Assembly: GCA_965203905.1 (NCBI GenBank)
Contig: CBDBDQ010000005.1
Coordinates: 5,984,001-6,048,000, forward strand
Source: Spirochaetia bacterium
GTDB lineage: Bacteria; Spirochaetota; Spirochaetia; SZUA-6; Bin103
Direction of reading: 5' to 3'
DNA: 64,000 bases
Part shown: in pieces, positions 14,018-40,923 of the stretch
Layout of the letters: the number at the start of each line of letters is the position of its first letter
Numbering within the stretch: position 1 is the first letter of the stretch
The notes under the pieces: model-generated
The model's database searches: none
Seen by the model: only the letters and a program-made list of their open reading frames with translations
What the model was told of the DNA's origin: nothing
Made by a program: the position numbers and the translations under genes

Positions 14018-14046
14018 TTGACAGCTCGTTGCGCGTGGATTACGAT
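14018..14046 (+). promoter_or_regulatory. Sigma70-type promoter of transporter unit 1
   Basis: TTGACA-gctcgttgcgcgtggat(17)-TACGAT; identical copies at 26096 and 33249. Confidence 0.8.
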
Positions 14047-14052
14047 GCCCCT

Positions 14053-14087
14053 TTGTCGCAATCCCGAATTCGGGATTATTGCGACAA
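14053..14087. promoter_or_regulatory. Near-perfect palindrome at the expected +1 (operator or 5' hairpin)
   Basis: TTGTCGCAAT-CCCGAATTCGGG-ATT-ATTGCGACAA. Confidence 0.6.
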
Positions 14088-14199
14088 CCGACACATCTGT
14101 GCCCGACCAGAGTTGTCGACGACAGATGCGCGCTAGCCGCGGCACCGGCTGGTCCGATGGCCGAGCCACCGTCCTATCAGAGCACCCAATAGCTCAAAG

Positions 14200-14370
14200 A
14201 GGAGGTGCAAAATGATACTCAAAGAGCCGTTGGCGCGCGCGGCGTGAGCCGGGGTGAACCCGGTGAGTCACACGCCGCGCGCTTTTCGTGTATTGGACTC
14301 AGACTGGCAGAGCCCGCGTTGCGGGCGCGAGAGTAGCCCGGGAGCGGCAGGCCGCTACGCAATACTCTCA
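14200..14370 (+). promoter_or_regulatory. Structured leader with 11-codon uORF MILKEPLARAA (14212-14247); putative attenuator
   Basis: SD AGGAGGT; 12-bp stem 14235-14246/14271-14282 followed by TTTT; conserved copy at 19490-19680. Confidence 0.6.
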
Positions 14371-14393
14371 AGATCAAAATGATGGACAAAACA

Positions 14394-16238
14394 ATGAAAA
14401 TCTTTTTTGGAAGGACCTTCGCGATTGCGTTGGTCCTGATTCAGAGCGCGACCGGCCTCTGGGCCACTGGCGCAGATGAAGAGGGGGCGGCAGCGGCCGC
14501 CGCCGCTGACAAGAAGTATGTCACCGACCCCTCCACCGGCATGGTGGTCGAGGCTCCGCGCTACGGCGGGTCAATCACCTTCGCCACAAAAGTCGCCGAT
14601 GACAACCTGCTCGTTGACGCCTGGGTCTCCGGAGGTGCCGGCTGGATTATCGGCATCGTCAACGAGAAACTCGGGATCATTGACTGGGCCATCGACCGGA
14701 ACAAACACCCGTATTTTACTGGCTACGTGGCGCCGGCGTTCGCACTGCGTGGAGCGCTGGCTGAAAGCTGGGAGATTTCCGGGGACGGCCTCACCTATAC
14801 CTTCAACATCCGCAAGGGCGTGCGCTGGCATAACAAGGCACCGATGAACGGTCGGGAGCTCACTGCCAAGGATATCGAATACAACTTTCACCGCAATATG
14901 GGGATGGGCAAGTTCACCGAGCCCTCGACTTCCCGAGGCGCCCTCGCCGATCTGGGAATTGCATCGATCGAGGCCACCGACGACATGACGGTTGTGTTCA
15001 AGCTCAGCCGGCCACACTACCAAGCCTTTCAGTTTATCATGGACTGGTACAATACGTGGATCCTGCCGCCCGAGGTCATCGATGAACACGGCTCGATCGA
15101 CAACTGGCAGGACCTGGTAGGCACCGGACCCTACATGCTGGTCGACTGGGTCAGAGGCACCTCGACTTCCTACGAGAAGAACCCGGACTATTGGGGGTTC
15201 GACGAGAAGTTCCCGCAGAACCGACTGCCCTATATCGACACCATCACGAGGCTGGTGATCCTGGACGACGCAACCCGGATGGCCGCTCTGCGTTCGGGCC
15301 AGGTCGACTACATTGGGGGGCCAGCCGGCGGGTCGCAGCTGCGATCGGTCGACCAGGCCGACGGTGTGCGTCGAACCAACCCCGAGCTGGTCATCCACAC
15401 CTTTTCGGAACGCTCGAACACCGTTGTTCGACTGGACACAACCAAGCCGCCGTTTAACGACATCCGGGTGCGTCAGGCGATGCAGAACGCGCTCGATCTC
15501 GAGACCATGAACCTCACCTACTACAAGGGGCAGGGCGAATGGACCCCGCGCGGTGCGGTGGCGCCCGAGTACGCGGCCCAGGGCATGACGGTCCTCTACG
15601 AGGAGTGGAGCCCAGAGCTCAAGGCCAAGTATGCCTATGACCCGGAGCTGGCCGAGCGGTTGCTGGATGAGGCCGGATTACCTCGCGGCGCGGACGGCGT
15701 CAGATTCCGGGTCAAGTATACCGTCCACCAAAACGCTGATCTGAGCTTTGCGGAGCTACAAGCCGCATACTGGGCTGAAATCGGCGTCCAGGTCGACGTC
15801 GTCAACACCCCTGCTGCCCAAGTGTCCGCGCTACTGGCCAACGGCCCTGACGGCACGGCTAAGTATGACATGGTCATGTGGCTTGGCGGCGTCAAGGCCG
15901 ATCCGATGATCGCGATCATGGGCTGGCCGGCTGGCTGGTGCTACGGCCCCGACTGTGAAGGGAACCCCGCCATTGCGAGCGCCGAGTATGACGCCCTGTA
16001 CGAGAGGGCCCGGCTCGGCGCGACTTTGGACGAGGTGGCCCCATTGGTCAAACAGATGGACATGATGATCATCGAGAACGTGTGGGCACTATGGGGACCG
16101 ATCGATCCGCTGTTCAACGTCCAATGGCCGTGGGTCAAGGGCTACACCAATGAAGGCGACCTCGGCGGCGCGCAGCGCGGCCAGCAGTTCGTGCGCATGT
16201 GGATCGACCAGGAGCTCAAGGCGGCGATGGGCTTCTAG
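14394..16238 (+). CDS. Family-5 ABC substrate-binding protein (unit 1)
   Basis: Signal peptide; APRYGG; LAESWEIS; GTGPYML; NRLPYID; PPFNDIRVRQA; YDPELAERLLDEAG. Confidence 0.93.
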   Translation: MKIFFGRTFAIALVLIQSATGLWATGADEEGAAAAAAADKKYVTDPSTGMVVEAPRYGGSITFATKVADDNLLVDAWVSGGAGWIIGIVNEKLGIIDWAIDRNKHPYFTGYVAPAFALRGALAESWEISGDGLTYTFNIRKGVRWHNKAPMNGRELTAKDIEYNFHRNMGMGKFTEPSTSRGALADLGIASIEATDDMTVVFKLSRPHYQAFQFIMDWYNTWILPPEVIDEHGSIDNWQDLVGTGPYMLVDWVRGTSTSYEKNPDYWGFDEKFPQNRLPYIDTITRLVILDDATRMAALRSGQVDYIGGPAGGSQLRSVDQADGVRRTNPELVIHTFSERSNTVVRLDTTKPPFNDIRVRQAMQNALDLETMNLTYYKGQGEWTPRGAVAPEYAAQGMTVLYEEWSPELKAKYAYDPELAERLLDEAGLPRGADGVRFRVKYTVHQNADLSFAELQAAYWAEIGVQVDVVNTPAAQVSALLANGPDGTAKYDMVMWLGGVKADPMIAIMGWPAGWCYGPDCEGNPAIASAEYDALYERARLGATLDEVAPLVKQMDMMIIENVWALWGPIDPLFNVQWPWVKGYTNEGDLGGAQRGQQFVRMWIDQELKAAMGF

Positions 16239-16352
16239 CCGGGCAACGCCAGGGTAGAGCATCCGTCGACCGTTCGGTATCCGATTGGTCTGTGGGGCGG
16301 CAGTGCCACTGTCGTCCCACAGATCTCGTCTTCCTGCCTTTAGAGGTCCCAC

Positions 16353-17318
16353 ATGAGAGCTTACGTCATCAGGAGACTGCTGCTCGTAATCCCCACGCTG
16401 CTCATCCTGAGCATGCTGGTCTTCCTGCTGGTCCGCTTCATTCCGGGCGACGTCATCGACAAGATGGAGGACCAGATAGACGTGGCCGGTGGCGGGTCGT
16501 TCGTGATCGACCGCGAGGAGATGGAACGTCGGCTGGGATTGGACGTGCCGGTCCCCGTGCAGTATGGACGCTGGGTAGGTGACATTCTCCTGCGTGGCTC
16601 TCTCGGCAAATCGCTGTACACCCGTGAAGCGGTGGAGCAGCAGATCCTGGCCAGACTGCCGGTGACCGTCGAGCTTGGCGTCATGGCAATCGTTATCGGG
16701 CTCTTGATAGCCCTGCCGGTCGGTGTGTACTCGGCGATTCGCCAGGACACGCTGGCCGACTACGCCGGGCGCTCGGCTGCCATCATCGGTCTGTCGACGC
16801 CGAATTTCTGGTTGGGCACCCTGGTCATGATCTTCCCTGCGATCTGGTGGAGCTGGGCGCCGCCCATGCGTCTGATTACTTTCACCGAAGACCCGCTCGG
16901 ACATCTCGGGATGTTCCTGATTCCCAGCGTGATTCTGGGGACGGCCTTGGCTGCAGGCACGATGCGGATGACGCGCACCATGATGCTGGAGGTGCTCAGG
17001 CAAGACTATATCAGGACCGCCTGGGCCAAGGGTCTCAAGGAGAGGGTAGTTATTATGAGACACGCCCTCAAGAATGCCTTCATCCCGGTAGTTACCCTGA
17101 TCGGCATGCAGTTGCCACTGCTGGTAGGCGGCGCCGTTATCATGGAGAACATATTTAACCTGCCGGGGATAGGTCGCCTCATGGTGAATGCCCTCAATAA
17201 CAGAGAGTACCCGGTGGTCTCCGGAATCAACCTGGTTTTCGCCACCATGGTTGTAGGCGTCAATCTAATGATAGACCTGATTTATCCGTACTTAGACCCC
17301 AGGGTCCGTTATAGCTAA
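16353..17318 (+). CDS. DppB-like ABC permease (unit 1)
   Basis: MRAYVIRRLL; QDYIRTAWAKGL; LDPRVRY. Confidence 0.93.
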   Translation: MRAYVIRRLLLVIPTLLILSMLVFLLVRFIPGDVIDKMEDQIDVAGGGSFVIDREEMERRLGLDVPVPVQYGRWVGDILLRGSLGKSLYTREAVEQQILARLPVTVELGVMAIVIGLLIALPVGVYSAIRQDTLADYAGRSAAIIGLSTPNFWLGTLVMIFPAIWWSWAPPMRLITFTEDPLGHLGMFLIPSVILGTALAAGTMRMTRTMMLEVLRQDYIRTAWAKGLKERVVIMRHALKNAFIPVVTLIGMQLPLLVGGAVIMENIFNLPGIGRLMVNALNNREYPVVSGINLVFATMVVGVNLMIDLIYPYLDPRVRYS

Positions 17319-17336: not shown

Positions 17337-18266
17337 ATGAGCGACGCCACAGGGATACGATCAGTAGAAATTGCGCCAAAGAGACGTTCACGGCTGGCTG
17401 ATTTCTTTAACAGGCTGGTCAGGGAGAAGCCGCTGGGTACTATCAGCGGCATTATCATATTGATATTGATTCTTGTCAGTATCTTTGCCGATGCTCTGGC
17501 CCCTTATCCATATTCTGAAGTTCACATGCTAGACAGGATGCAGGCCCCATCGGCCCAGTATCTGCTGGGTACCGACCAGTTGGGGCGAGACTTCTTGAGT
17601 CGCCTCATCTTCGGGGCTCGTCTCTCGTTGGGTGTCGGTCTGGCCGCGACCGCTCTTAATGTTGTCGTCGCTGTGCTGATAGGCGGAACCTCAGGATTCC
17701 TTGGTGGTAAATTGGACTTGGCGGTGCAGAGATTTGTCGATGCCTGGATGGCTCTCCCCGGCTTGCTGATACTGCTGGCCGTGATGTCGCTTACCGGACC
17801 GGGTGTGTTGCAGATAATCGTGGTGCTGGGCGTGACCGGGGGGATTACCGGCTCGCGGGTGGTCAGGGGCGCGGTCATCGGCATCAAGGAAAGCGACTAC
17901 TTCACCGCGGCGCAGGCGGTCGGCACGCCGACCCGGGTGACGCTGGTGCGGCACCTGCTGCCCAACATCATGGCGCCGATCATCATCATCTTCAGCATCA
18001 ACGTCGGCGGCGTCATCATCGCCGAGGCCAGCTTGAGCTTCCTCGGTTTCGGTCTGCCGGCGGGTGTGCCGAGCTGGGGCGGCATGCTCAGCAGGGAAGG
18101 CCGCAGCTACATGGAGATCGCGCCGTGGCTGGCGATCTGGCCCGGCGTATTCCTTACCATCACCGTCTACAGCCTCAACATGTTCGGTGACGCGCTCAGG
18201 GACCTGCTGGACCCGCGGCTCCGGGGCGCCAGCCGCGTCGGTGCCGCTGCCGCCAAGTCGGTCTAA
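17337..18266 (+). CDS. DppC-like ABC permease (unit 1)
   Basis: LGTDQLGRD; EASLSFLGFG; FGDALRDLLDPR. Confidence 0.93.
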   Translation: MSDATGIRSVEIAPKRRSRLADFFNRLVREKPLGTISGIIILILILVSIFADALAPYPYSEVHMLDRMQAPSAQYLLGTDQLGRDFLSRLIFGARLSLGVGLAATALNVVVAVLIGGTSGFLGGKLDLAVQRFVDAWMALPGLLILLAVMSLTGPGVLQIIVVLGVTGGITGSRVVRGAVIGIKESDYFTAAQAVGTPTRVTLVRHLLPNIMAPIIIIFSINVGGVIIAEASLSFLGFGLPAGVPSWGGMLSREGRSYMEIAPWLAIWPGVFLTITVYSLNMFGDALRDLLDPRLRGASRVGAAAAKSV

Positions 18267-18275: not shown

Positions 18276-18866
18276 GTGCGTTCCTCGGCCAACGCGGAAG
18301 ACCTGCCGGATCTGTCGTTCGCCGGGCAGCAGGACACCTATCTCAACATACGCGGCCTCGCTGAGGTGTTTGAGGCGGTGCGCAACTGCTGGGCGTCTTT
18401 GTGGACGCCCCGGGCCCTCAGTTATCGGCATGAACATGCCATCGCCCAGGGGGCGGTTGCCATGGCGGTGGTGGTGCAGAAATTGGTGCCCTCGGAAGTC
18501 TCCGGCATCCTCTTTACCGCCAACCCGGCGACCGGGGAGCGCTCCGAGATGATCGTCAGTGCCAGTTTCGGGTTGGGAGAAGCGATTGTCGGCGGCGAGA
18601 TCACCCCCGATACCTACATCATCGACCGGGACACGTTGGCAGTCAGGGAGACCATCATCGGCAGCAAGGAGCACATGCTGGTGCCCGCTGCCGGGCAGGG
18701 CACCGAGAACCGGGAGTTGAGCGCGGCGGAGCGCGAACAGTCGTCGCTGGCGGAGCCGGTGTTGCGGGAACTGGCGCAACTCGCCATCGCCGTGGAGCGG
18801 CACTTCGGCCAGCCCCAGGATATCGAGTGGGCAGTCGTCAATGGGACTCGGACGGATCGGAGATGA
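18276..18866 (+). pseudogene. Internal fragment of a PEP/pyruvate-binding (PEP synthase/PPDK N-terminal) domain gene
   Basis: VRSSANAEDLPDLSFAGQQDTYLN; GLGEAIVGGEITPD; PQDIEWA; lacks the N-terminus and all downstream domains. Confidence 0.85.
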
Positions 18867-19165
18867 AGCGCCATGACGACAGTCAGCGCAGTGGCCGGTG
18901 GCCGGTCATGTTCGGTGACCTGACCTCCGAGTGGTTGACAGGGTGGTCGCGCCCACGCTATCATGCTTGGCTTGGGCCGACGGATGCCGATGAAGCGCCA
19001 TGATGACAGGCAGCGCAGTGACGGGTTGCCGGTGACCTTCGCTCACCCCGGTGACCCCCACGAGTCGTTGACGGCGCGCCGCGCCTATGCTAGCGTGCCT
19101 CACTTGGGGTTCGACGGATGGTCATGAAGCGTCACGATGACAGGCAGCGCAGTGACCGGTTCGCT
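18851..19165 (+). repeat. About 2.4 imperfect tandem copies of a ~130-bp unit containing promoter-like boxes
   Basis: GACGGAT…ATGAAGCGYCAYGAYGACAGKCAGCGCAGTG at 18851, 18979 and 19113; TTGACA-18-TATCAT and TTGACG-17-TAGCGT inside the units. Confidence 0.8.
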
Positions 19166-19489
19166 GTGACGCGACCAGTGCATCATACCCCCCACTTTTT
19201 CAAACCGAGAAACAACTAACCGCTCGGGCTGATCGCCCCCTACGCGACCCCGCGCACACCGTCGCCTTCACCACCGCCGTAACTATCGGTGGCGCCCGCT
19301 CGGTCCATCGCCGAACCGGCATGCTGGCCGCCCGCGTCCTTCCAGGCGACCGCAACCGTCCCGGATCCCCGCCCGCGACTAACTGCGCGCAAAACCCTCC
19401 GCCTGCGTTGGCGGCCATTCAGACTCACTGCTGCTCAGACCACCGCCACGCGTGGCGTTGTAACGCAGATCCCGACGTAGATCTAGAAA

Positions 19490-19701: not shown

Positions 19702-21513
19702 ATGATGAAAATCTTATTTCGAATGACCTTCGCGATTGCGTTGGTCCTCGTAATGACCGCGACCGGCGTCTGGGCCACCGGCAGCAGCGACAGCGATGGG
19801 TCAGCCGCGGCCGAAAAGGAAAAGGTGCGCGACCCCTCCACCGGCAAGATGGTGACCGCGCCCGAGTATGGCGGAACAATAACCTATCCCTACAATGTAA
19901 TTCTTGAGACTACTGACCCCCATGCTAGCGGCCACTTTGCGAGTGACATCGACAGCGTTAATCAGAAGCTTGCCGTCCCGGACTGGGGAATAGATAGGGA
20001 CAAACTTGACTATAAAAGCGGTTACGTCAGTATGGAGTTCTATGTAGGGCAGTTGGCTGAAAGCTGGGAACAGCCTGACCCACTGACTTACATCTTCCAC
20101 ATCCGCCAGGGCGTTCACTACGCCCTTGATCCAGACAGTGAGGCCAGCCGCTTAGTAAACGGACGGGAGCTCACAGCCGATGATGTCGTATATTCCATTC
20201 AGCGTCATACCGCTCAGGGCGACTTCACCGAACGTCCCGTCCGGACTTACGAGATGATCAACCTGCCATGGGAATCGATAGAGGCCACCGACAAATTTAC
20301 GGTTGTTATCAAGATGAAGGAGTTCTCCCTCATTGCGCTAAGGGCCATCATCACCGAAGACACAGGTTGGATATTACCCCCCGAGGTAATCGAGAAATAC
20401 GGGAACTATGAGGATTGGAAGAACGTGGTCGGCACCGGGCCCCTTATGCTGACTGACTGGACCGAAGGGGTCTCCAAAACCTGGACCAAGAATCCTGACT
20501 ACTGGGGCTACGACCCCAAATACCCGCAGAACCTCGTGCCCTATGTTGACGAGATAAGGGCCCTGTATATGCCAGAAAGAGCAACAGCTCTGTCGGCACT
20601 ACGTACGGGTAAGATTGATTTTAGCGGCAACGTTCCCCTTCTCAAAACTCTCGACGACGTAATGAGCCTCCAGCGGACCAACCCCGAAATCACGGTGACC
20701 ACTACTTTCGGGACTGCTACGACTGTTTTTACTATGAACACGCACAAGCCTCCCTTTGACGACATCAGGGTACGCCGCGCAATGCAGATGGCACTGGACC
20801 TTGAGGAGATTAGCGATACCTACTATGGCGGTTTGGCAAGGTGGGAACCTCAGGGGGGGGTAGGGAAAGCCGTCGTGGGGTATAACACCTCATTTGATGA
20901 GTATCCCGAAGAGGTCAAGCAATACTATATCTATGACCCGGAGGGTGCCGAGAAGCTGCTTGATGAGGCTGGATATGCGCGCGGCGCGGACGGCGTTCGA
21001 CTCAAGGTTCACCTGCACCACCGCGACGTTTCGGATCTCGGCTATACAGAAATAGCTGTCAGCTACTGGCGTGAGATTGGCATTGATGTAGATGTTGGTA
21101 TATACGACACGCCTTCTTGGGTAGCAGCCAGAGCAGACACTACTTTGTATGAGCTAGCCACTAGCTACCAGGCCTTTACTTTTAACCCTGAAACCTGGGT
21201 AACCTATTATCGCACGGATTACAAACATCGGAGCGAATACATAGGCGGATACCAGAGCCCTGAGATGACCGCCCTGTATGACGCCTTTTTCGCCGCTAAA
21301 ACCGTTGAGGAGCAGCAGAGGATATTTAAAGAGTTTGATATGGAGGTCGGCATAAGGCGGCACAATCAAGTATGGGGTCCTATAGCCCCAGGGTTTGTGC
21401 AGGCCCAGCCGTGGGTTATAGGCTATAACGGTGAAGTCACTGGAAATCGTCCTCGTCTCGCCCTCGTCCACCTTTGGATTGACCAGGAGATGAAGGAAGC
21501 AATGGGTCGTTAG
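19702..21513 (+). CDS. Family-5 ABC substrate-binding protein (unit 2)
   Basis: DPSTGKMVTAPEYGG; LAESWEQPD; GTGPLML; PPFDDIRVRRAMQMALD. Confidence 0.93.
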   Translation: MMKILFRMTFAIALVLVMTATGVWATGSSDSDGSAAAEKEKVRDPSTGKMVTAPEYGGTITYPYNVILETTDPHASGHFASDIDSVNQKLAVPDWGIDRDKLDYKSGYVSMEFYVGQLAESWEQPDPLTYIFHIRQGVHYALDPDSEASRLVNGRELTADDVVYSIQRHTAQGDFTERPVRTYEMINLPWESIEATDKFTVVIKMKEFSLIALRAIITEDTGWILPPEVIEKYGNYEDWKNVVGTGPLMLTDWTEGVSKTWTKNPDYWGYDPKYPQNLVPYVDEIRALYMPERATALSALRTGKIDFSGNVPLLKTLDDVMSLQRTNPEITVTTTFGTATTVFTMNTHKPPFDDIRVRRAMQMALDLEEISDTYYGGLARWEPQGGVGKAVVGYNTSFDEYPEEVKQYYIYDPEGAEKLLDEAGYARGADGVRLKVHLHHRDVSDLGYTEIAVSYWREIGIDVDVGIYDTPSWVAARADTTLYELATSYQAFTFNPETWVTYYRTDYKHRSEYIGGYQSPEMTALYDAFFAAKTVEEQQRIFKEFDMEVGIRRHNQVWGPIAPGFVQAQPWVIGYNGEVTGNRPRLALVHLWIDQEMKEAMGR

Positions 21514-21554
21514 GGGTTTTGAGCAGCCGACAAGACTGCATTTTAGTCGGGGAA

Positions 21555-21918: not shown

Positions 21919-21953
21919 AGAGAGGGGTTGCAAATCACAAGGAGTAGTGTGAC

Positions 21954-33697: not shown

Positions 33698-35518
33698 ATG
33701 CAATACGCAATCTTGCGAAAGATCCTGGCGGTACTGATCGGTCTCGGTCTGACCGCGACCGGCCTGTGGGCAAGCCCGGCCGCGGAAGAGGAGCCGGCAG
33801 CCGCCATGGAGAAGGAAATGGTGACCGACCCCACTACCGGCAAGATGGTGACCGCGCCGGAGTACGGGGGGACGCTAACCTACCCCTATAACAGGGTAGG
33901 CGAGATCACCGACCCCTTCTTCAATGGAATCGAAGCGGGCTGGCTCATAGACGGTGTCAACGAGAGACTCGCCGACGGGAACTGGGGACTCGATAGGGCC
34001 GAATATGACTTTAGGGACTCTTTCGTCCCGCTGTTTGCCTTCACCGGGAATCTCGCCGAAAGCTGGGAAACGCCCGACCCACTGACGTACGTCTTCCACA
34101 TCCGTGAGGGCGTTCGCTACGCTCTTAATCCAGACAGTGAGGCCAGCCGGCTCGTGAACGGTCGGGAACTCACCGCCGATGACGTCGTTTTTACGTATCA
34201 ACGGAATAACGGCCTCGGTGACTTCACGGAAAGCACCGAAATGACTCGCCCCTCTAACAACCTGCCGTGGCAATCGATCGAGGCTAGCGACAAATATACG
34301 GTTGTCATGAAGCTGAAGGAGCCGTCCCTCACCGCACTATTTGTTATCCTCCAGGAGGCTCAGGATTGGATATTGCCCGCGGAGGTAATCGAGCGATACG
34401 GCGACTATAAGGATTGGAGGAACGTAGTCGGCACCGGGCCGTGGATGCTGACCGACTACGTCGAAGGCGTATCCAAATCCTATATCAAGAATCCTGACTA
34501 CTGGGGCTTCGACGAGAAATATCCCGGGAACCGCCTGCCGTACAGCGACCAGTTAAGGGCCTTGCTAATGCCAGAAGAAGCAACACGTATCTCGGCGCTA
34601 CGCACTGGTCAGATTGATATCATACAACACGCCGGCGTCGTTGACATACAAAGCCTTGACGTGATCCGGAGCCTCCAGATGACCAATCCGGAAATCGAGG
34701 TGCATAGCTATTTCCAGGCGGCGTTTGCGTCTTTTAGTCTGAACATTCGCAACGCTCCATTTGACGACATCAGAGTGCGCCACGCCATGCAGATGGCGCT
34801 CGACCTAGAGACGATCAACGAGACCTACTATAGCGGTTTCGCCAAGGTGGAGCCCATCGGGTTGACCGCGGTCAAGGGGTATAACACCCCATTCGCAGAG
34901 TGGCCCGAGGAGCTCAAACGATACTACACCTACGACCCGGAAGGCGCTGAGAGACTCCTTGATCAAGCCGGATATCCGCGGGGGGCAGACGGCGTCCGAT
35001 TCAAGACGACCGTTCTGCATCGCGACGCCGCTGATTTGGGCTTTGTGGAAGTAGCTGCCGGGTACTGGTCTGATATCGGGGTTATAGCGGACATTAACGT
35101 TGTTGACACGCCGACATGGATCGCTGCCAGAGCAGAAGCTAATTATGAGATGAGCAACAGTCGCTGCGCAATGGCTACCGACCCCGCCTGGACAATTAGC
35201 CTTCACCGCGCGGAAGGCGGCAACAAATTCTTTCGTGAATGGGTGGGTGGGGGCGAGAACCCTGAGCTGATTGTTGCCTATGATGCGTTTCAGGCCGCTA
35301 CTACCATCGAGGGTCAAATGAAGGCCCATAGAGAGTATGATATGGCGTATTCGAGGGAGCACAGTCAGGTGTGCGGTCCTCTAGCTCCACTGTTTCAGGT
35401 AAACCAGCCGTGGGTCGGAGGTTTTAACGGTGAATTCGCGTTGAACAACGTGAGCCATCACACCATCCTCGCTCGCCTCTGGATAGACCAGGATCTGAAG
35501 CGAGAAATGGGATTCTAA
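33698..35518 (+). CDS. Family-5 ABC substrate-binding protein (unit 4)
   Basis: SD AGGAGG; termini shared with unit 3, interior diverged. Confidence 0.93.
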   Translation: MQYAILRKILAVLIGLGLTATGLWASPAAEEEPAAAMEKEMVTDPTTGKMVTAPEYGGTLTYPYNRVGEITDPFFNGIEAGWLIDGVNERLADGNWGLDRAEYDFRDSFVPLFAFTGNLAESWETPDPLTYVFHIREGVRYALNPDSEASRLVNGRELTADDVVFTYQRNNGLGDFTESTEMTRPSNNLPWQSIEASDKYTVVMKLKEPSLTALFVILQEAQDWILPAEVIERYGDYKDWRNVVGTGPWMLTDYVEGVSKSYIKNPDYWGFDEKYPGNRLPYSDQLRALLMPEEATRISALRTGQIDIIQHAGVVDIQSLDVIRSLQMTNPEIEVHSYFQAAFASFSLNIRNAPFDDIRVRHAMQMALDLETINETYYSGFAKVEPIGLTAVKGYNTPFAEWPEELKRYYTYDPEGAERLLDQAGYPRGADGVRFKTTVLHRDAADLGFVEVAAGYWSDIGVIADINVVDTPTWIAARAEANYEMSNSRCAMATDPAWTISLHRAEGGNKFFREWVGGGENPELIVAYDAFQAATTIEGQMKAHREYDMAYSREHSQVCGPLAPLFQVNQPWVGGFNGEFALNNVSHHTILARLWIDQDLKREMGF

Positions 35519-35788
35519 GCCACCGGCTTTGCCGTTGGCTTAAGGAGTCGCTGCGCGACTCCACGAAATCGCGAGAGGCGGTTCCATTACAGCAGCGCTT
35601 CGCGCGGCTGCAATGGGGAAGTCGCCATAGGGGAAATGCAATTGGCCCCGCCCGAGGGCGGGGTCCACGAATCAACTCGCCCCTTGGGCGATTGAAATGG
35701 CAGCAGCGCTACGCGCGGCTGCTCTGAGCAAGGGCGCCGGGAGAACGCTTCCGAGCGCCGCTTCCCGGCGCTCATTTGCCACGACGAT

Positions 35789-36745
35789 ATGAGAGCCTAC
35801 ATCATCCGGCGGCTGCTGCTGGTCGTCCCCACGCTGTTCATCTTGAGTGTGTTGGTGTTCCTATCAGTCCGCCTCATCCCCGGCGACGTCATCGACCTCA
35901 TGGCCAGTCGCACGGAATACACGGGCGGCCAGCTCGACCGCGCGGCCATCGAACAGCGGCTCGGACTGGACCTGCCGATTCACGTGCAGTACAGCCGCTG
36001 GATCGGCGGCATCCTTCTGCGCGGTACGCTCGGCGAGTCGCTGCTGGGAGGTTGGCGCATTGAGCAGCGCATGCTGGGACGACTGCCGGTCACCGTCGAG
36101 CTGGGCGTGCTGGCCATCGTCATCGGCCTGGTCATCGCCCTGCCGGTGGGCATCTACTCGGCGGTGCGCCAGTACACCGCCGCCGACTACCTGGGACGGT
36201 CGGTCGCCATCATGGGGCTGGCCACGCCCAACTTCTGGCTGGGAACGATGGTGATGATCTACCCGGCCATCTGGTGGGCGTGGTCGCCGCCGATGGAGCT
36301 GGTGCCATTCGCCCAGGACCCGCTGGGCAACCTCGGCATGTTCCTGATCCCCAGCCTGATCCTCGGCACCTACCTGGCGGCCAGCACCATGCGCATGACC
36401 CGCACCATGATGCTGGAGGTGCTGCGCCAGGACTACATCAGGACCGCCTGGTCCAAGGGTCTGCTGGAGCGGTCGGTGATCCTGCGCCACGCGGTCAAGA
36501 ACGCGATCATCCCGGTGGTGACGCTGGTGGGCATGCAGTTGCCGATCCTGGTGGGCGGCTCGGTGATCATCGAGAACATCTTCAACCTGCCGGGGCTGGG
36601 GCGGCTGATGCTGGACGCCCTCAACGACCGCGACTACCCGGTGGTGTCGGCGATAAACCTGTTCTTCGCCACGGTGGTGGTGTTGGTCAATCTGCTGACC
36701 GACCTGCTGTACGCGTCGCTGGACCCGCGGATTCGCTACGAATGA
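35789..36745 (+). CDS. DppB-like ABC permease (unit 4)
   Basis: Near-identical to unit 3. Confidence 0.93.
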   Translation: MRAYIIRRLLLVVPTLFILSVLVFLSVRLIPGDVIDLMASRTEYTGGQLDRAAIEQRLGLDLPIHVQYSRWIGGILLRGTLGESLLGGWRIEQRMLGRLPVTVELGVLAIVIGLVIALPVGIYSAVRQYTAADYLGRSVAIMGLATPNFWLGTMVMIYPAIWWAWSPPMELVPFAQDPLGNLGMFLIPSLILGTYLAASTMRMTRTMMLEVLRQDYIRTAWSKGLLERSVILRHAVKNAIIPVVTLVGMQLPILVGGSVIIENIFNLPGLGRLMLDALNDRDYPVVSAINLFFATVVVLVNLLTDLLYASLDPRIRYE

Positions 36746-37004
36746 GGCGGTACGGCCATTCCGTTACCCGGAACACCATGAAACCGCGCGGGCAGTGCGC
36801 GGTGGACGCCATCAGCAACGCGGTGATCTTGGCCCAACGCCGGTGAGATACCCACCGGCAGCACAAGCGGAGTTCATCCCTGGTAGCAGCAAACCGCCGA
36901 CTTCGATAGCATACCTGGACGAACCACGCTGCACCGCAGAACCCCACTTGAAGCTCGCGGTCACCGGGGGCGTTTTGGTGCGCACATTGCAAGGAGAAAC
37001 AGAC

Positions 37005-37283
37005 GTGCCGACGATATCGATGTTCTATGGCATCTTGATCCTACTATACTTCTATGACAACAAGAGGCACAATAGACCTCACATTCATGCGGAATACGCC
37101 GAACATACCGTTGTAGTGGCCATTGATGATGGCGCTGTTCTGGGCGGCAGTTTGCCGATAGCAAAGATGAAGCTCGTCCAGGCCTGGATTGAAATACACC
37201 GAGAGGATCTGCTTGCAGACTGGAAGCTAGCCGTTGCTGGCGAACCGGTTTTAAGATCGACCCATTGCGGTAGTAGGTGGTAG
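37005..37283 (+). CDS. DUF4160 domain protein (TA-like; possible -1 T near the 3' end)
   Basis: MPTISMFYGI…HNRPHIHAEY…LVQAWIEIHREDLLADW; adding one T near 37250 gives VFKIDPLR*. Confidence 0.85.
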   Translation: MPTISMFYGILILLYFYDNKRHNRPHIHAEYAEHTVVVAIDDGAVLGGSLPIAKMKLVQAWIEIHREDLLADWKLAVAGEPVLRSTHCGSRW

Positions 37284-37286
37284 ATT

Positions 37287-37547
37287 GTGGATACCATTGT
37301 TAAGGCTATTCCCCTTGATGACCACCGCATTGAGATTCTGACCAGTAGCGGTATTTCCGGGGTTTTCGATGTCAAGCCCTACTTGCAGGGCCACGCATTC
37401 AAAGAACTGGCGAATGAATCATATTTTCGCCTAGTTCGCCCTGCCCATCATGGCATCGTGTGGCCACATGAGCAGGACTTCAGTTCAGACACGATAATCT
37501 GGGACATCGTACACGCTCGATCGGCCAACACGCCCGAAACACCATGA
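37287..37547 (+). CDS. DUF2442 domain protein (partner of DUF4160)
   Basis: FDVKPYLQGHAFKELANESYF…GIVWPHEQDFS. Confidence 0.85.
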   Translation: MDTIVKAIPLDDHRIEILTSSGISGVFDVKPYLQGHAFKELANESYFRLVRPAHHGIVWPHEQDFSSDTIIWDIVHARSANTPETP

Positions 37548-37682
37548 AAACGGCGCATGGGGCAGTACGCGGTGGCCGCCTTTTGCGGTCCAGTCGACAC
37601 GGTCACTCGGTAACGCCAGAGAGCATGCACACCGATGCACCGGCACCGCGGGCTGGCCGCCATGGTCGGACGGGGCAGGCCC

Positions 37683-38631
37683 GTGGGTGACGTATCACCG
37701 CTGACGCCGGCCGGCGCCGAGCCGGCCGCGGGGGCGGCTGCGACTGGGCAGGCCGGACTGAGGAAGTTCTGCGGGCGCCTGGTGCGCGAGCAGCCGCTGG
37801 GGACCGCCAGCGGCATCGTCATCCTGCTCCTGGTGCTGGTGAGCATCTTCGCCGATTCGCTGGCGCCCTACCGCTACGAGGAGATCCACCTGCGCGACCG
37901 CCTGCAGGCCCCCTCCGCCGCGTACCTGCTGGGCACCGACCACGTGGGACGCGACCTGCTGAGCCGCCTCATCCACGGGGCGCGGCTGTCGCTGACGGTG
38001 GGGGCTGGCCGCCACCGCCCTCAACGTCGTGGTGGCGGTGCTGATCGGCGGCACCACCGGCTTCATCGGCGGCCGGCTGGACCTGGTGACGCAGCGCTTC
38101 GTCGACGCCTGGATGGCGTTCCCGGGGCTGCTGTTGCTGCTCACCATCATGTCGATTGCCGGCCGCGGCATGGCGCAGATCATCATCGTGCTGGGGGTGT
38201 CGGGCGGCATCCCGGCCTCGCGGGTGGTGCGGGGCGCCGTGCTGGGGGTCAAGGAGAACGTCTACTTCCAGGCGGCGCAGGCGATCGGCAGCTCGCGCCG
38301 GCGCTCGTTGCTGCGCCACGTGCTGCCCAACATCGCCGCGCCGATCATCATCATCTTCAGCATCAACGTGGGCGGGGTGATCATGGCAGAGGCGGCACTG
38401 AGCTTCCTGGGGTTCGGCCTGCCGCCGGACATCCCGAGCTGGGGCGGGATGCTGAGCCGGGAGGGGCGCCAGTACATGGAGATCGCGCCGCACCTGGCGC
38501 TGTGGCCGGGCGTGTGCCTGACGGTGGTGGTGTACAGCCTCAACATGTTCGGCGACGCGGTGCGCGATCTCCTGGACCCGCGGCTGCGTGGCCGGCTCGG
38601 CCGCTACGGCGCCGGCCGGGACAGAACCTGA
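37683..38631 (+). pseudogene. DppC-like permease (unit 4) with +1 G frameshift near 38000
   Basis: acggtgggggctggcc (G5) versus G4 in the paralogues; otherwise full length. Confidence 0.85.
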
Positions 38632-38677: not shown

Positions 38678-39250
38678 TCACGGGCCATCCCGCGCGATCG
38701 ATTCGAAGCCGGGCAGCAGGTCGCTTTGATCCAGCGCCTCCTCGAGCAACCGCAGTGTCCGGCGAATCGCACGCTCATCGAGGTTCTGCCCGTGGACGCG
38801 CCACAGGTTCTGCGCATCTGCGAGATCCTGCGGGGCGGCTCGCGAGGAGCTTGGCGATGATGAGGTCCTGGACAGCGATCAACGGGACGGCCGTGCCGCC
38901 GATGTCCACCGTCCGGGCACGCTCAAGGAACTCGTCCTCCAGTCCCGACCCTGCCAATACGATGTCCAGCGGCATCGCGGTAGCAGCGTGAACGAACGGC
39001 ATCACCCGAGTCCGCCGGATGAACTCCGGATCCTCGACGCGCAAGACGAACCCCGCGGCCTGCATGGCGGCTGCGAACCGCTGCGGATCGTCGTTGTCCA
39101 GCTTGACGGTGACGTCGACGTCGGCGCTCAAGCGCGGCACACCGTACGCGATGACTGCCTGCGCGCCGAACACGTACCAGCGCCCTCGGCCTGCGAGCAC
39201 CTTTGCCAGTGCGGTCAGGAGTTCAACTGCGGGCGGGCGGAAGCGGCACG
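38678..39250 (-). pseudogene. Nucleotidyltransferase (AbiEii/DUF6036-like) with single-base insertions
   Basis: WYVFGAQAVIAYGVPRLSADVDV; QDLIIAKLLASRP|QDLADA after removing one base near 38832. Confidence 0.75.
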
Positions 39251-39478
39251 CGTGAACAGCTCGGCCAAGCGCACGTGAGCGAGCAGGTCCTGCTTCCGGG
39301 CGGCGGCATCGGGCCACCCCGGATTGTGCAGCAGTGCTTGTCTGCGCAACTCGTCGGCGATGCGCAGCCCTTCCAGCGGTCCGTAACGGGCGATGCGCTC
39401 GGCCCAATACGCGTCCTTGGCAGCACGCGCCGTTCGCCACTCGCGAGCCATATAGTCGCGAATGCCACGGCTGATCAT
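39215..39478 (-). CDS. Small protein coupled upstream of the nucleotidyltransferase
   Basis: 87-aa ORF overlapping the NTase start; TGn-TACACT -10 box 6 nt before the ATG. Confidence 0.65.
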   Translation of the reverse strand: MISRGIRDYMAREWRTARAAKDAYWAERIARYGPLEGLRIADELRRQALLHNPGWPDAAARKQDLLAHVRLAELFTRAASARPQLNS

Positions 39479-39573
39479 GGTTGCAGTGTAGCATGGTGCG
39501 TCGAACAGCGCTTCGTCGACGCCTCGATCGGCAGTGGAAGATGAGGATCACCAGTCTCCCAACAGCCAACTGA

Positions 39574-39726
39574 AACGTCGGGGAGGATCACGACACGGCG
39601 GCGTTTGCGATGGAGACGCTGCGGCGGTGGTGGCTGAGGATGGGCAGTGTGGCGTATGCGAAGACCAAGCGGTTGCTGATCACGACCGCCGGCGGTGGTT
39701 CCAACGGCAGCCGCAGTCGGCTGTTC
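39574..39726 (+). mobile_element. ISAzo13-family transposase fragment
   Basis: Translates NVGEDHDTAAFAMETLRRWWLRMG…RLLITTAGGGSNGSRSRLF, matching the family motif DHDTxxFAxxxIRRWW…LLITADGGGSNGSR. Confidence 0.75.
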
Positions 39727-39729
39727 GCG

Positions 39730-40370
39730 GATACCCGAAGAACCTGCCCCATATTGACCAGTTAAGAGCTCTCCGCCCGCTGGTCCGCTTTTTCGGACCA
39801 GGCAATGAGGCAATGAGGGAAGCCCGTGGGTGACGTCTCCCAGCTGACGCCGGCTGTCGCCGAGCCGGCCACTGGGGCGGCTGCGGCTGGGCAGGCTGGA
39901 CCGCGGCGGTTCTTCGCGCGCCTGGTCCGCGAGCAGCCGTTGGGGACCGCCGGCGGCATCGCCATCCTATCCTGGTGCTGGTGAGCATCTTCGCCGACGG
40001 GCTGGCGCCGCCATCGCTACGAGGAGATCCACCTGCGCGACCGTCTGCAGGCCCCCTCGGCCCAGTACCTGCTGGACACCGATCACGTGGGGCGCGACCT
40101 CTTGAGCCGGCTCATCCACGGGGCGCGGGTTGTCGCTGACGGTGGGGCTGGCCGCAACGGTCTTCACCGTCGTGGTGGCAGTGTGATCGGCGGCATCACC
40201 GGCTTCATCGGCGGCCGGCTGGATCTGGTGACGCAGCGCTTCGTCGACGCCTGGATGGCGTTCCCGGGGCTGCTCCTGCTGCTGACCATCATTTTGATCA
40301 GCCGGCCGCGGCATGCTGCAGATCATCATCGTGCTGGGCGTGTCGGGCGGCATCCGTTCCCCGGCTCGAC
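39730..40370 (+). pseudogene. Collapsed transporter unit: ~45-bp SBP relic, dppB/dppC junction and multiply frameshifted dppC 5' half
   Basis: YPKNLPHIDQLRAL matches the SBPs; gcaatgaggcaatgagggaagcccgtg junction; dppC DNA from 39826 with several indels. Confidence 0.85.
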
Positions 40371-40421
40371 TTGACCCTGAGCAGTCCGTAGCGTACGGTA
40401 GGACGTACGGGAGGCAGCCCA

Positions 40422-40664
40422 ATGGGGACCTTGAATGTCACCACCGCACGGAAGAACCTGTACCGGCTCATCGATGAAGTGAATGAATCGCATGCTCCGG
40501 TCACGATTACGGGAAAAGAACGGTCGGCGGTCCTGGTGAGCGAAGAGGACTGGAATGCAATACAGGAGACGTTGTACCTGTCCGCCATCCCCGGCATGAC
40601 CGATTCGATACGGAAGGGACTCGAAACCCCCGTGGAGGAGTGCGACGCAGAGCCTGGGTGGTGA
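40422..40664 (+). CDS. yefM: Phd/YefM antitoxin
   Basis: ARKNLYRLIDEVNESHAPVTITGK…IQETLYLSAIPGM; promoter TTGACC-17-TACGGT with GTACG repeats. Confidence 0.9.
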   Translation: MGTLNVTTARKNLYRLIDEVNESHAPVTITGKERSAVLVSEEDWNAIQETLYLSAIPGMTDSIRKGLETPVEECDAEPGW

Positions 40665-40923
40665 CTATCGACTGGTGTTCACCCGACAAGCCCGAAAGGA
40701 CGCACAGAAGGTGGCTGCGTCCGGGCTCCGTACAAACGTGGAGCGCCTCCTTCAGGTGCTACGTGAGGATCCCTGGCGCAGCCCGCCACCGTTCGAGAAA
40801 CTGGTTGGCGATCTGACGGAAGCGTTTTCGCGTCGGATCAACATCCAGCACCGCATCGTGTACCAAGTCCTTGAACGCGAACGCGTCGTCAAGGTGCTCC
40901 GAATGTGGACGCACTACGAGTGA
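40661..40923 (+). CDS. yoeB: Txe/YoeB toxin; start and 5' frame uncertain
   Basis: PPPFEKLVGDLTEAFSRRINIQHRIVYQV…RMWTHYE. Confidence 0.85.

Follow-up and report, generated by a model that had tools for sequence, protein, structure and literature searches.

A probable hypervariable tandem array of PepT-type ABC importer cassettes in a large bacterial genome related to Spirochaetia

Open reading frames and Pfam matches reveal a row of four SBP5-dppB-dppC units and two dppC remnants on the plus strand at 13852-41715 of the window (the whole 64 kb stretch of DNA analysed here). The genome is a large bacterial one, with relatives that are labelled Spirochaetia. The explanation that we consider probable, taken as a whole, is that of a hypervariable tandem array of PepT-type (SBP5-DppB-DppC) ABC importer cassettes, flanked by a PhyH gene on one side and an operon for a sugar-type importer on the other (Table 1). 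A first-pass annotation had described four units and two collapsed ones, and the reading frames, Pfam matches and identities agree with this. It had also called unit 4 complete: SBP4, dppB4 and dppC4 are all present, but dppC4 is frameshifted, with its OppC_N and BPD_transp_1 matches in different frames, and a DUF4160/DUF2442 pair lies inside the unit (the DUF4160 gene scores 94 bits against NF048015, whose cut-off is 100). No such piece was found between dppB and dppC in the orthologous unit of L004. The extra G makes dppC4 a pseudogene unless it is a mistake of the assembly, and this frameshift together with the splitting of unit 4 by an insertion points to possible decay in part of the array. 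The frames of S1-S4, B1-B4 and C1-C3 (the SBP, dppB and dppC genes by unit number) are intact.

Table 1. Features of the array and its flanks, in window coordinates
Feature	Position	Strand	Evidence or remark
PhyH-family dioxygenase gene, left flank	12407-13369	-	Pfam; kept in congeners
Whole variable array, indel versus congeners	13852-41715	+	Bounds (~13852/~41715) judged against congeners' empty sites
Promoter-bearing leader element, unit 1	13993-14058	+	Common to units 3 and 4
SBP1 (family 5 solute-binding protein), unit 1	14379-16238	+	SBP_bac_5 5e-73
dppB1	16353-17318	+	BPD_transp_1 + BPD_transp_1_N
dppC1	17337-18266	+	OppC_N + BPD_transp_1
PPDK_N (PEP-utilising enzyme) gene fragment, U1-U2 spacer	18276-18866	+	Pfam
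SBP2, unit 2	19702-21513	+	SBP_bac_5 1e-60
dppB2	21954-22916	+	Mosaic
dppC2	22929-23927	+	Homogenised
Rpn-family PD-(D/E)XK nuclease gene	24106-25128	+	Transposase_31 1e-38; TIGR01784 Rpn family
MNT-type nucleotidyltransferase (antitoxin-like)	25451-25789	+	NTP_transf_2 8e-9; weak MntA match
HEPN remnant, C-terminal 44 residues only	25816-25947	+	Sequence comparison
Constant leader, unit 3	25828-26551	+	88.8% identical to 32967-33697
SBP3, unit 3	26552-28366	+	SBP_bac_5
dppB3	28482-29438	+	Pfam
dppC3	29456-30403	+	Pfam; clusters with own-genome copies
PD-(D/E)XK (Hjc/YraN-like) gene	30498-31115	+	Weak Hjc match, 2.8e-4
Collapsed unit C3b, 5'-truncated dppC	31129-31777	+	95-96% identical to C2/C3/C4
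Phd-like antitoxin	31867-32169	+	Phd 2e-5, under Pfam cut-off
PIN toxin	32060-32596	+	PIN 2.8e-12; listed ORF overlaps Phd ORF
HEPN gene, full length, without adjoining MNT partner	32772-33089	+	HEPN 5e-4, weak
Constant leader, unit 4	32967-33697	+	Sequence comparison, promoter scan
SBP4, unit 4	33698-35518	+	SBP_bac_5
dppB4	35789-36745	+	Pfam
DUF4160 (DhiT-like toxin) + DUF2442 pair, between dppB4 and dppC4	36795-37547	+	Pfam
dppC4, frameshifted	37635-38631	+	Alignment: +1 G in G-run near 38000
Small ORFs, the first-pass 'NTase pair'	38755-39833	+	91% nt copy in L002 behind truncated dppC
Collapsed unit (C5 fragment), broken 5' part of dppC	39800-40355	+	89% identical to C2
YefM antitoxin	40422-40664	+	7.7e-18
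YoeB/ParE-type toxin	40675-40923	+	1.9e-8
PIN fragment, N-terminal 47 profile positions only	41256-41516	+	Pfam
SBP_bac_1 gene + two permease genes without ATPase, right flank	41772-45461	+	Pfam

Between units the binding proteins share only 43-69% of their residues (43-44% for SBP1 against S2-S4), and as the annotation had read them their translations combine differing interiors with common termini, DP[ST]TGKMVTAPEYGG ... WIDQ. Identity rises along the unit, from 71% for the SBPs of units 2 and 3 and 79% for the block from leader to SBP end of units 3 and 4, to 87-93% for dppB and 93-96% for dppC, with unit 1 at 72-75% to the other units. Since dppB1 has about 73% nucleotide identity to B2-B4 it has not been homogenised with them, and dppC1 is about 70% identical to C2/C3. 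The dppC2 and dppC3 genes are 94% identical (dS 0.15) and dppB3 and dppB4 93% (dS 0.17), while dS between S3 and S4 is 0.67. A breakpoint was found within dppB2, a mosaic with 62-77% identity to B3/B4 over its initial ~260 nt and 85-96% over the remainder, in keeping with the proposed recombination.

Separate trees of the three genes, suggested as a check, gave a divided answer. The SBP tree pairs S3 with L001_6565, S4 with L004_6625 and S5 with L001_3, each at 100% SH-aLRT, and the dppB tree recovers the same unit-orthologue pairs; the dppC tree departs from both, setting 5 own copies apart from 11 copies of relatives (support 81/96). Approximately unbiased (AU) tests, on groups taken from the SBP tree though after sight of a quick dppC tree, rejected orthology of C3 with L001_9992 (p 2.4e-4) and of C4 with L004_9992 (p 1.6e-14). 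Between orthologous units dS is 0.115-0.134 for SBP, 0.128-0.144 for dppB and 0.197-0.225 for dppC, and dppC paralogues of one genome are closer to each other, with 0.145-0.154 in this genome and 0.084-0.110 in its sister. The orthologues of SBP3 in L001 and SBP4 in L004 are both 95% identical in nucleotides, with dN/dS of 0.21 and 0.28 respectively, and the binding proteins are thus old and under purifying selection, as expected of functional proteins; no close orthologue of SBP2 was found among the fetched loci of relatives. A similarity gradient was also drawn over 14 unit pairs, picked by dppC identity, which biases it. GC3 steps from 0.62-0.68 in SBP2-4 (0.62 in SBP2) to 0.85-0.95 in the permeases, and when GC-biased conversion was considered as its cause, data from the whole genome did not support this (Spearman rho 0.13, p 0.11 for dppC).

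The 5' ends behave in a similar manner. The leader element of unit 1 shows 92.6% identity with 26069-26136 and 81% with 33207-33289, and the copies of units 3 and 4 carry TTGACA-17-TACGAT, with promoter-like sites at 26096-26124 and 33249-33277 in a promoter scan. As the annotation had noted, the sequence shared by units 3 and 4 begins within a HEPN frame, at 25828/32967. Over positions -300 to -1 the unit 3 leader is 73% identical to its orthologue and 84% to its unit 4 paralogue; in the sister genome identity between paralogues is 82-96% for the leaders and 87-100% for most of the signal-peptide codons, such that leaders and signal peptides cluster by genome. Trees, AU tests and dS together support, at the level of sequence, the claim that the constant parts (dppC, leaders) evolve in concert and that the SBP cores stay distinct.

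Comparison of congeners shows that the array is an indel. The site is empty in G007/G014, where window position ~13851 is joined to ~41716, and in G001/G013, where the PhyH and SBP_bac_1 genes lie ~770 bp apart; other arrays occupy it in G004/G015 (~21 kb) and G006 (~13 kb). Two units are common to these two arrays; their SBPs agree at 97.5% and none of them is an orthologue of S1-S4, and orthologues of S3 and S4 are located elsewhere in a genome with an empty site. Unit number and content are thus not fixed, as had been expected. Both flanks are kept, PhyH at 86-87% nucleotide identity in G001, G004 and G007 and the SBP_bac_1 operon at 89-94% in five congeners.

Remnants are scattered through the array and those of relatives. 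The PPDK_N fragment matches only profile positions 105-295 of 328, the frame of the dppC remnant at 39800-40355 is broken, and of the HEPN gene upstream of unit 3 only a C-terminal piece is left, which matches residues 62-105 of the full-length HEPN (32772-33089) at 91% protein identity. The supposed NTase pair could not be upheld, as neither Pfam nor NCBIfam gave a match for the ORFs at 38755-39544. Copies resembling C3b in relatives are truncated at differing points clustered within ~80 nt. The deletion products include a B-C chimera (L004) and an SBP fused directly to a truncated dppC (L007), joints which cannot stem from homologous crossing-over alone. Copies of the PD-(D/E)XK gene (88-91% nt) lie 3' of dppC in L007, L002, L003 and G004, the Phd-PIN module lies 3' of dppC in L001 and L004 (83%), and the PIN fragment recurs in the G004 and G006 arrays (93-96% nt).

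The annotation had reported no dppD/F ATPase, and indeed ORFs and Pfam yielded no ABC ATPase gene in the whole 64 kb window. This absence is not special to the array, because genome-wide a DppD/F gene lies within 5 kb of 24 out of 173 dppB genes; the ATPase-less cassette is the rule in this genome. In the subfamily the figure is 1 of 49, that gene being the neighbouring operon's, and a DppD/F-type gene occurs in 1 of 71 loci of relatives. The genome has at least 149 OppC_N matches versus 63 oligo_HPY matches. A search for orphan dppDF found 17 DppD/F ORFs without a permease gene within 3 kb, with about seven DppDF pairs standing alone. Precedents exist: Opp of Borrelia burgdorferi combines two pairs of permeases with a single NBD pair (PMC5736914), and sugar importers are served by multitask ATPases (PMC7658222).

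The annotation had further likened the array to a superintegron, a store of specificities in which toxin-antitoxin (TA) modules are kept as a penalty on unit loss. The array is dense in such genes (6 of 137 PIN/Phd/NTase/DUF4160 matches in its 27.9 kb versus 0.48 expected), YefM-YoeB and DUF4160/DUF2442 are full-length, the PIN gene has a full domain match, and dppC-Phd-PIN and dppC-PD-(D/E)XK adjacencies repeat in relatives' arrays. We nevertheless consider this protection unlikely, given that HEPN 25816-25947 and PIN 41256-41516 are fragments, MNT and HEPN partners lie apart, both collapsed units directly adjoin TA genes, and the whole array is lost or was never present in two congeners. Genome-wide there is no enrichment of PIN/Phd modules at cassettes, 16 of 88 lying within 1 kb of one versus 12.7 expected, a count reached in 0.196 of simulations. 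Neither a tyrosine integrase nor attC-like repeats were found at the array, which bears out its description as integrase-independent. Comparably doubtful is a homing-like drive, in which breaks made by Rpn and/or PD-(D/E)XK nucleases beside dppC start conversion and cassette transfer. Homogenisation does peak at the dppC end beside these genes, the PD-(D/E)XK gene repeatedly follows dppC in relatives, of the ~14 places with an Rpn match, 5 have the Rpn gene or fragment no more than ~1.1 kb from a cassette gene, and the G004 array holds Rpn fragments. However, that Rpn enrichment is marginal, the PD-(D/E)XK gene is placed in its catalytic family by a weak match (Hjc 2.8e-4), one of five loci of this family in the genome is near a cassette with the others more than 12 kb off, and dppC copies megabases apart without an adjoining nuclease gene are still 96-97% alike.

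Somewhat less likely again is a graveyard of redundant transporters without a current role, their permeases alike through recent duplication. The frameshifted dppC4, two dppC remnants and the PPDK_N, HEPN and PIN fragments would suit it, as would the IS elements present at U5, a related locus; the constrained S3/S4 orthologues and the intact frames would not. Recent duplication of whole units would moreover leave SBP, dppB and dppC equally alike. The only genuine example, the pair at 7.03/7.73 Mb, shows just this (99% in all parts), and the array differs. That strain variants of a single locus were strung together in assembly we regard as very improbable. The contamination estimate of the genome is 7.9%, the repeats are 93-96% alike and Logan contigs end inside them, but SBPs with such divergent proteins are not strain variants. 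In addition, exact Logan contigs of run X15 span the C2-Rpn-MNT, C3-PD-(D/E)XK-C3b and C3b-Phd/PIN junctions, contigs of run X1, from another study, cover several of these with 0-2 other letters, and in two congeners, assembled independently, arrays built in the same way occupy the corresponding position.

The hypervariable array that we favour would work as follows. The variable core of each unit is the mature binding protein, which would set the substrate taken up, held between a constant 5' arm (promoter, leader and signal peptide) and a constant 3' arm (dppC and the last two thirds of dppB). Gene conversion between arms of different units keeps these alike within the genome, and conversion into the SBP core is presumably purged because the core is an old specificity under purifying selection. 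Units would be added, removed, truncated and relocated by crossing-over, unequal or ectopic, and in part by illegitimate deletion, so that congeners come to differ, as observed, in how many units they have, what these contain and where they lie. The TA, Rpn and PD-(D/E)XK genes would most simply be selfish passengers in a recombination-prone, non-essential region, copied together with the adjoining dppC ends. TA density in the array exceeds what pure passengers would give unless a further assumption is made. Of the annotation's 'accordion', homogenisation and variable units stand, the manner of unit gain and loss is probable, and protection from collapse by TA genes is not supported. With an ATPase-less norm, concerted arms and an array that is an indel, a recombination-driven accordion is largely supported, for which ATP hydrolysis would be supplied in trans by DppD/DppF pairs from other parts of the genome, of which several stand alone.

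Between ~13.85 and 41.7 kb of the window, the genome studied (G000; 7.99 Mb, 66% GC) carries four units (U1-U4), all on the forward strand, in each of which a gene for an SBP_bac_5 binding protein (S1-S4) is joined by genes for a DppB-type (BPD_transp_1_N + BPD_transp_1) and a DppC-type (OppC_N + BPD_transp_1) permease, as defined by Pfam. Open reading frames, Pfam matches and self-comparison agreed, with small corrections, with the four complete and two collapsed units of the first-pass annotation; its ‘NTase pair’ at 38755-39544 had no match in Pfam or NCBIfam. S1-S4 match SBP_bac_5 at 1e-60 to 5e-73 and have signal-peptide-like N termini, and the permeases hit the NCBIfam Opp/Nik/Gsi B and C models at 1e-60 to 1e-86, every one below the equivalog cut-off. 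The solved structure closest to the SBPs is HbpA (PDB ID 3m8u; E 8.5e-24), a match too remote to suggest which ligand they bind. Promoter-like sites of their own were seen for U3 and U4, and since a scan of the window with Rfam models, at their gathering thresholds, gave 0 matches, the ~430-nt leader holds no known riboswitch. One additional G in a G-run near 38000 of dppC4 is either a real frameshift or an assembly error. The spacer between SBP and dppB measures 440 nt in U2 and 270 nt in U4, the two being unlike each other, versus ~115 nt in U1 and U3. Neighbouring genes include a sulfatase, three PhyH-family genes, a GH127 piece and SDRs.

Features of the array and its surroundings (window coordinates)
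Feature	Position	Strand	Remarks
Partial SBP_bac_5 ORF	165-1097		At window start, adjoining sulfatase gene
SBP5-dppB-dppC operon	8139-12363	minus	Another ATPase-less operon, just left of PhyH flank
Left flank, PhyH gene	12407-13369	minus	Kept in congeners
U1, SBP gene	14379-16238	plus	
PPDK_N (PEP-utilising enzyme) gene fragment	18276-18866		Directly after dppC1
Short tandem duplication	18851-19036 and 18979-19170		Behind PPDK_N fragment; copies 77% identical
U2	19702-23927	plus	
SBP-dppB spacer of U2	21513-21954		
U3	26552-30403	plus	
dppC remnant	31129-31777	plus	5' end missing
U4	33698-38631	plus	
SBP-dppB spacer of U4	35518-35789		
DUF4160/DUF2442 (DhiT-like)			Inside U4, between dppB and dppC
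dppC remnant	39800-40355	plus	Broken 5' part
Rpn-family nuclease gene			Array spacer
MNT-type nucleotidyltransferase gene			Array spacer
HEPN remnant and full HEPN gene			Array spacers
PD-(D/E)XK gene			Array spacer; weakly Hjc/YraN-like
Phd-PIN			Array spacer
YefM-YoeB			Array spacer
PIN fragment	41256		Array spacer
Right flank, SBP_bac_1 operon	from 41772		Kept in congeners
Dispersed ~160-nt repeat	43464-43625		Between SBP_bac_1 gene and its permease

ABC importers are usually pictured as self-contained operons. No ABC ATPase ORF was found in the 64-kb window, confirming the lack of dppD/F noted at first pass; the two oligo_HPY ATPases by which PepT importers are recognised are not encoded with these permeases, and the closest DppD/F-type ORF ends ~84 kb before the window. 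Across the genome there are 63 matches to Pfam oligo_HPY, which marks the C terminus of DppD/F, and at least 149 to OppC_N (150 of 248 candidates scored). Profiles built on the window's own proteins gave a chromosomal count of ~190 SBP5, 173 dppB and 190 dppC versus 58 DppD/F-type ORFs, and a DppD/F gene lies within 5 kb of only 24 of the 173 dppB genes. For the subfamily that includes the window units (~50 cassettes) such a gene is nearby in 1 of 49, and belongs to an adjacent operon. ATPase absence is the rule in G000 and not the exception, the lone SBP-dppB-dppC set being the commonest layout (63 loci). A genome search for orphan dppDF returned 17 ORFs of DppD/F type, some single and the others making up about seven pairs, with no dppB or dppC within 3 kb. 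As for relatives, a DppD/F-type gene is carried by one of 71 loci of ~20 kb each, fetched around dppC relatives in MAGs labelled Spirochaetia, Dehalococcoidia, Aggregatilineales or ‘bacterium’. Given this genome-wide shortage of ATPase genes, the stand-alone DppD/F genes and the precedents discussed below, supply in trans is a reasonable reading, and it is plausible that few DppDF pairs encoded elsewhere energise many permease pairs. The sugar-type SBP_bac_1 importer of the right flank (41772-45461), which a PhyH-family gene follows, is also without an ATPase gene.

In the self-comparison, dppB and dppC of U2-U4 were alike at 87-93% and 93-96%, respectively. Identity was 71% between the SBP genes of U2 and U3, 75% between the S3 and S4 coding sequences and 79% between U3 and U4 from the leader through the SBP end. 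The U1 permeases are 72-75% identical to those of the other units, and U1 (~26% divergent) lies outside the homogenisation. We compared the window units, and a fifth unit of the group at 5.12 Mb of the same contig (G000:C5), with units of related genomes. The SBP tree pairs S3, S4 and the SBP of the fifth unit (S5) with single genes of relatives (L001_6565, L004_6625 and L001_3, respectively), each at 100% SH-aLRT, and the dppB tree retains these three pairs. In the dppC tree one branch separates the five G000 copies from 11 copies of relatives (support 81/96). The AU test rejects the dppC pairs predicted from the SBP tree (p 2.4e-4 and 1.6e-14), its groups having been drawn from the SBP tree but named after a quick dppC tree had been seen.

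Synonymous divergence (NG86) between orthologous units of different genomes was 0.115-0.134 for SBP, 0.128-0.144 for dppB and 0.197-0.225 for dppC, versus 0.67 (S3/S4), 0.17 (B3/B4) and 0.145-0.154 (dppC) for paralogues inside G000, and 0.65, 0.12 and 0.084-0.110, respectively, for paralogues inside the sister genome from which the orthologues were taken. Within-genome paralogues are therefore closer than orthologues at dppC while other parts of the units keep their orthology. Over the 300 nt that precede S3, identity is 73% to the leader of its orthologue versus 84% to that of its paralogue in U4. Leaders of paralogues in the sister genome show 82-96% identity to one another, and the first 60 nt of most SBP genes there are 87-100% alike regardless of SBP lineage. 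dppB2 is a mosaic, with 62-77% identity to B3 and B4 over its first ~260 nt and 85-96% over the remainder. Conversion between units has occurred in both arms, and the homogenised permeases and differing SBPs proposed earlier are borne out by the separate trees, the AU test and dS. The residual amino-acid differences among B2, B3 and B4, read from the sequences, cluster at residues ~36-100 and ~165-175, and our guess is that these might be periplasmic loops facing the SBP.

Between species the SBP cores show a dN/dS of 0.21-0.28; they are old, maintained specificities under purifying selection and not fast-evolving, the high ratio of 0.77 for S2/S3 coming from a comparison of long-diverged paralogues. 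Genome-wide, we found 14 pairs of complete units whose dppC genes are at least 85% identical, and in 13 of these, some of them megabases apart, identity rises from SBP (68-80%) through dppB (77-93%) to dppC (85-97%). Because this set was picked on dppC identity, it is the contrast with orthologues that constitutes unbiased evidence. The fourteenth pair is a true recent duplication, 99% identical throughout; its copies, at G000:C5:7028395-7032464 and 7732771-7736373 (~0.7 Mb apart), provide a control for unconverted young copies.

Both flanks of the array are 86-94% identical in congeners, and what lies between them differs, in keeping with the variable unit content that had been predicted. The site is empty in two pairs of genomes: in G007 and G014 window position ~13851 is joined to ~41716, and in G001 and G013 the flanking genes are ~770 bp apart. 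G004 and G015 hold an array of ~21 kb there, and G006 one of ~13 kb. Units of the G004 and G006 arrays are 91% identical to those of the window in dppB and 84-88% over the dppB-dppC block, and the same arrays hold the MNT gene (93-94%), the HEPN-leader piece (92%), the PIN fragment (93-96%), Rpn fragments and collapsed units. Both, however, contain two SBPs (97.5% alike) orthologous to none of S1-S4, and for one of the two an orthologue (95.7%) lies elsewhere in G013. In G013 itself, where the site is empty, orthologues of S3 and S4 nevertheless sit in arrays at other places, one of these arrays being a run of five units that spans two fetched loci (L007 and L001) adjoining on the contig. The flanks of those relatives' arrays map to scattered places in G000, so that no reciprocal empty site is definable. 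The empty, ~21-kb and ~13-kb sites and the orthologues at other places show that members of a single genus differ in how many units they have, which ones, and where. Near the empty site of G001, an Rpn gene 90% identical to that of the window array lies ~1.6 kb left of the PhyH flank (locus L087, 1-1086; G001:C1:1977000-1978086). The ~160-nt repeat in the right flank has ~10 near-full copies in G000 at 90-95% and many in congeners; one copy directly follows a subfamily dppC (G000:C5:2769985), and the repeat may be a MITE-like element.

An array of this kind could be an assembly product, strain variants having been strung together. The SBPs are 43-69% identical in protein across units and are therefore not strain variants, and two congeners, each assembled independently, have arrays of the same build at this site. 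Logan contigs of one sequencing run (X15) are exact across the unique junctions 23865-25783, 30295-31158, 31741-32912 and 39232-39951, and those of a run from another study (X1) cover 23859-24501, 24832-25715 and 40326-40657 with 0-2 other letters; the order of the units is that given by the assembly, reads not extending from one end of the array to the other. In contigs of X15 and a further run (X16), window position 25828 is joined, with a side of 49 nt, to 32840, where MNT would meet the full HEPN as in G004, and this join may represent a co-occurring relative or a variant that lacks U3. In all such joints one side is short, 21-49 nt at 90% likeness, and co-occurring relatives may be their source; they are thus no sign that units are lost within a population. 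Pieces of the window are also present in sponge and coral metagenome runs; contigs of four runs (X15, X1, X2 and X16) were placed on the window, and the small shares in the remaining runs have no bearing on habitat. Site-specific insertion was rejected: comparison of the array ends with the empty site revealed neither direct repeats nor att-like sites, just 2 inverted repeats of at least 18 nt occur in 13500-42000, neither at a unit boundary as attC-like repeats would be, and IntI was not found next to the array. The genome has 28 Phage_integrase matches, 0 of them in the window, and the closest tyrosine recombinase is ~265 kb off (G000:C5:6312749). The integrase-independence claimed at first pass therefore stands. 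GC3 is 0.62-0.68 in the SBP genes of U2-U4 versus 0.85-0.95 in their own permeases, a step that GC-biased gene conversion might have caused; a close paralogue does not predict GC3 genome-wide (dppB rho 0.03, p 0.73; dppC rho 0.13, p 0.11), which argues against this cause, and cores and arms possibly have different origins.

The toxin-antitoxin (TA) and nuclease genes offer another explanation, namely that addiction modules protect the array against collapse. The array (27.9 kb) does contain 6 of the genome's 137 PIN, Phd, NTase and DUF4160 matches versus 0.48 expected, for a region chosen after the fact. Genome-wide, however, 16 of 88 PIN/Phd modules lie near cassettes versus 12.7 expected, with a null that counted random points inside genes as near and so was slightly favoured; a general association was rejected, being not significant at 1, 2 or 3 kb. 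YefM-YoeB and DUF4160-DUF2442 have both partners adjacent and at full length, and Phd-PIN, whose Phd scores below the Pfam cut-off, is a plausible type II TA pair. The MNT-HEPN partners are split or truncated and the PIN gene at 41256 is a fragment, neither forming a full-length pair. With genes fragmented or partnerless, collapse beside them, arrays absent in congeners and PIN/Phd not enriched, protection by TA modules did not hold up. Phd-PIN and the PD-(D/E)XK gene recur straight after dppC in several genomes, which fits copying along with the dppC arm, and we read the TA and nuclease genes as passengers. Rpn proteins are recombination-promoting nucleases. The Rpn gene inside the array is a YhgA/Transposase_31 PD-(D/E)XK (NCBIfam TIGR01784) with fragments in relatives' arrays; its association with cassettes is weak, and the Rpn or PD-(D/E)XK protein might just conceivably start recombination. 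A homing role for the PD-(D/E)XK nuclease was rejected, only one of its five family loci in G000 being near a cassette.

We infer instead that recombination from arm to arm, as unequal or ectopic crossing-over, would add, delete and relocate units, and that selection would halt conversion at the mature-SBP boundaries; with few DppDF pairs presumably serving many permease pairs, uniform permeases would be harmless or useful. Homology between units stops at the dppC stop codon. The ~7-kb piece 25828-32840 starts with a repeat of the HEPN-3'/leader block, and the same block also follows the piece, a layout that unequal or ectopic crossing-over leaves. The first-pass interpretation is borne out in part: its accordion holds, with homogenised arms, variable units and a missing integrase observed and crossing-over as the presumed step. 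Some products would require illegitimate joins too, among them a dppB-dppC chimera, an SBP gene fused directly to a truncated dppC, and dppC truncation points that fall within ~80 nt of one another without coinciding. The chimera is at ~20416-20800 of a relative's locus (L004), where a deletion fuses dppB to dppC sequence. Around the fifth unit (L072; G000:C5:5117000-5133000) we saw a lone full dppC, DUF4160 on the opposite strand, the SBP5 gene with dppB5, and an N-terminal dppC fragment, with Y2_Tnp, rve_3 and IS66 transposase genes close by.

Chromosomal (super)integrons are cassette arrays with toxin-antitoxin cassettes. The present array resembles them as a long series of swappable units, interspersed with TA genes, that varies between close relatives; unlike in integrons, its units are whole three-gene operons and its homology arms are coding and leader DNA. 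DppABCDF and OppABCDF of E. coli (TC 3.A.1.5) are built from the same three families, SBP_bac_5, DppB-type and DppC-type, but their classic operon includes dppD and dppF, which the array units lack. Opp of Borrelia burgdorferi, as set out in the available part of PMC5736914, combines several binding proteins with two permease heterodimers and one NBD heterodimer; it is likewise a PepT importer of a spirochaete, and it shows that ATPase sharing occurs in this transporter family. That system has five binding proteins and two permease pairs (PMC5736914), whereas G000 has well over 100 permease pairs and ~31 DppDF pairs, with a separate permease pair for each binding protein and concerted evolution of the permease genes. 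The multitask ATPases MsmX, MsmK and MsiK energise CUT1 sugar importers, where a binding protein and two permeases are similarly encoded in an operon without an NBD gene and the orphan ATPase lies elsewhere, although these belong to another ABC family and, for the most part in Gram-positives, have one homodimeric ATPase that serves six or seven systems (PMC7658222, available part). The words ‘oligopeptide’, ‘Opp’ and ‘Dpp’ are absent from that paper, and neither of its two uses of ‘peptide’ concerns a peptide importer. Bacterial concerted evolution by gene conversion has been described for rRNA operons (PMC6002687) and RF1/RF2 (PMC4530459), in the available parts of which paralogues within a genome are likewise closer than orthologues and breakpoints are mosaic; unlike there, conversion in the array is confined to two arms around a protected core and accompanied by unit gain and loss. 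Searches of Creative-Commons PMC papers and bioRxiv preprints brought up no account of PepT cassette arrays that lack ATPases, nor of ABC permease arrays evolving in concert. Three known features, namely shared ATPases, several binding proteins and concerted evolution, are here combined in a form and on a scale that the searched literature did not show.

Although speculative, and in our judgement improbable as a complete picture, the cassettes might form an integrase-free, homology-guided exchange system analogous to integrons, in which SBP cores would move between arrays and chromosomal sites via constant leader and permease arms, Rpn or PD-(D/E)XK nucleases would supply the breaks, TA modules would bias unit retention, the host would re-tool >100 cassettes on ~31 motors over short evolutionary times, and the format would spread between phyla.

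In G000, its relatives and genomes of other phyla with the same cassette family, the binding protein and its permease pair are a free-standing module, and such modules exceed ATPase pairs several-fold; for annotation, ‘incomplete’ transporters of this type should not be counted as broken. The contrast of orthologues with paralogues offers an unusually clean natural case of conversion limited by selection on a specificity domain. These findings raise the questions of how so few DppDF motors can serve >100 permease pairs, whether a constant permease face toward the ATPase explains why conversion is tolerated, and whether the layout of a variable core between two constant arms lets plain homologous recombination evolve substrate range.
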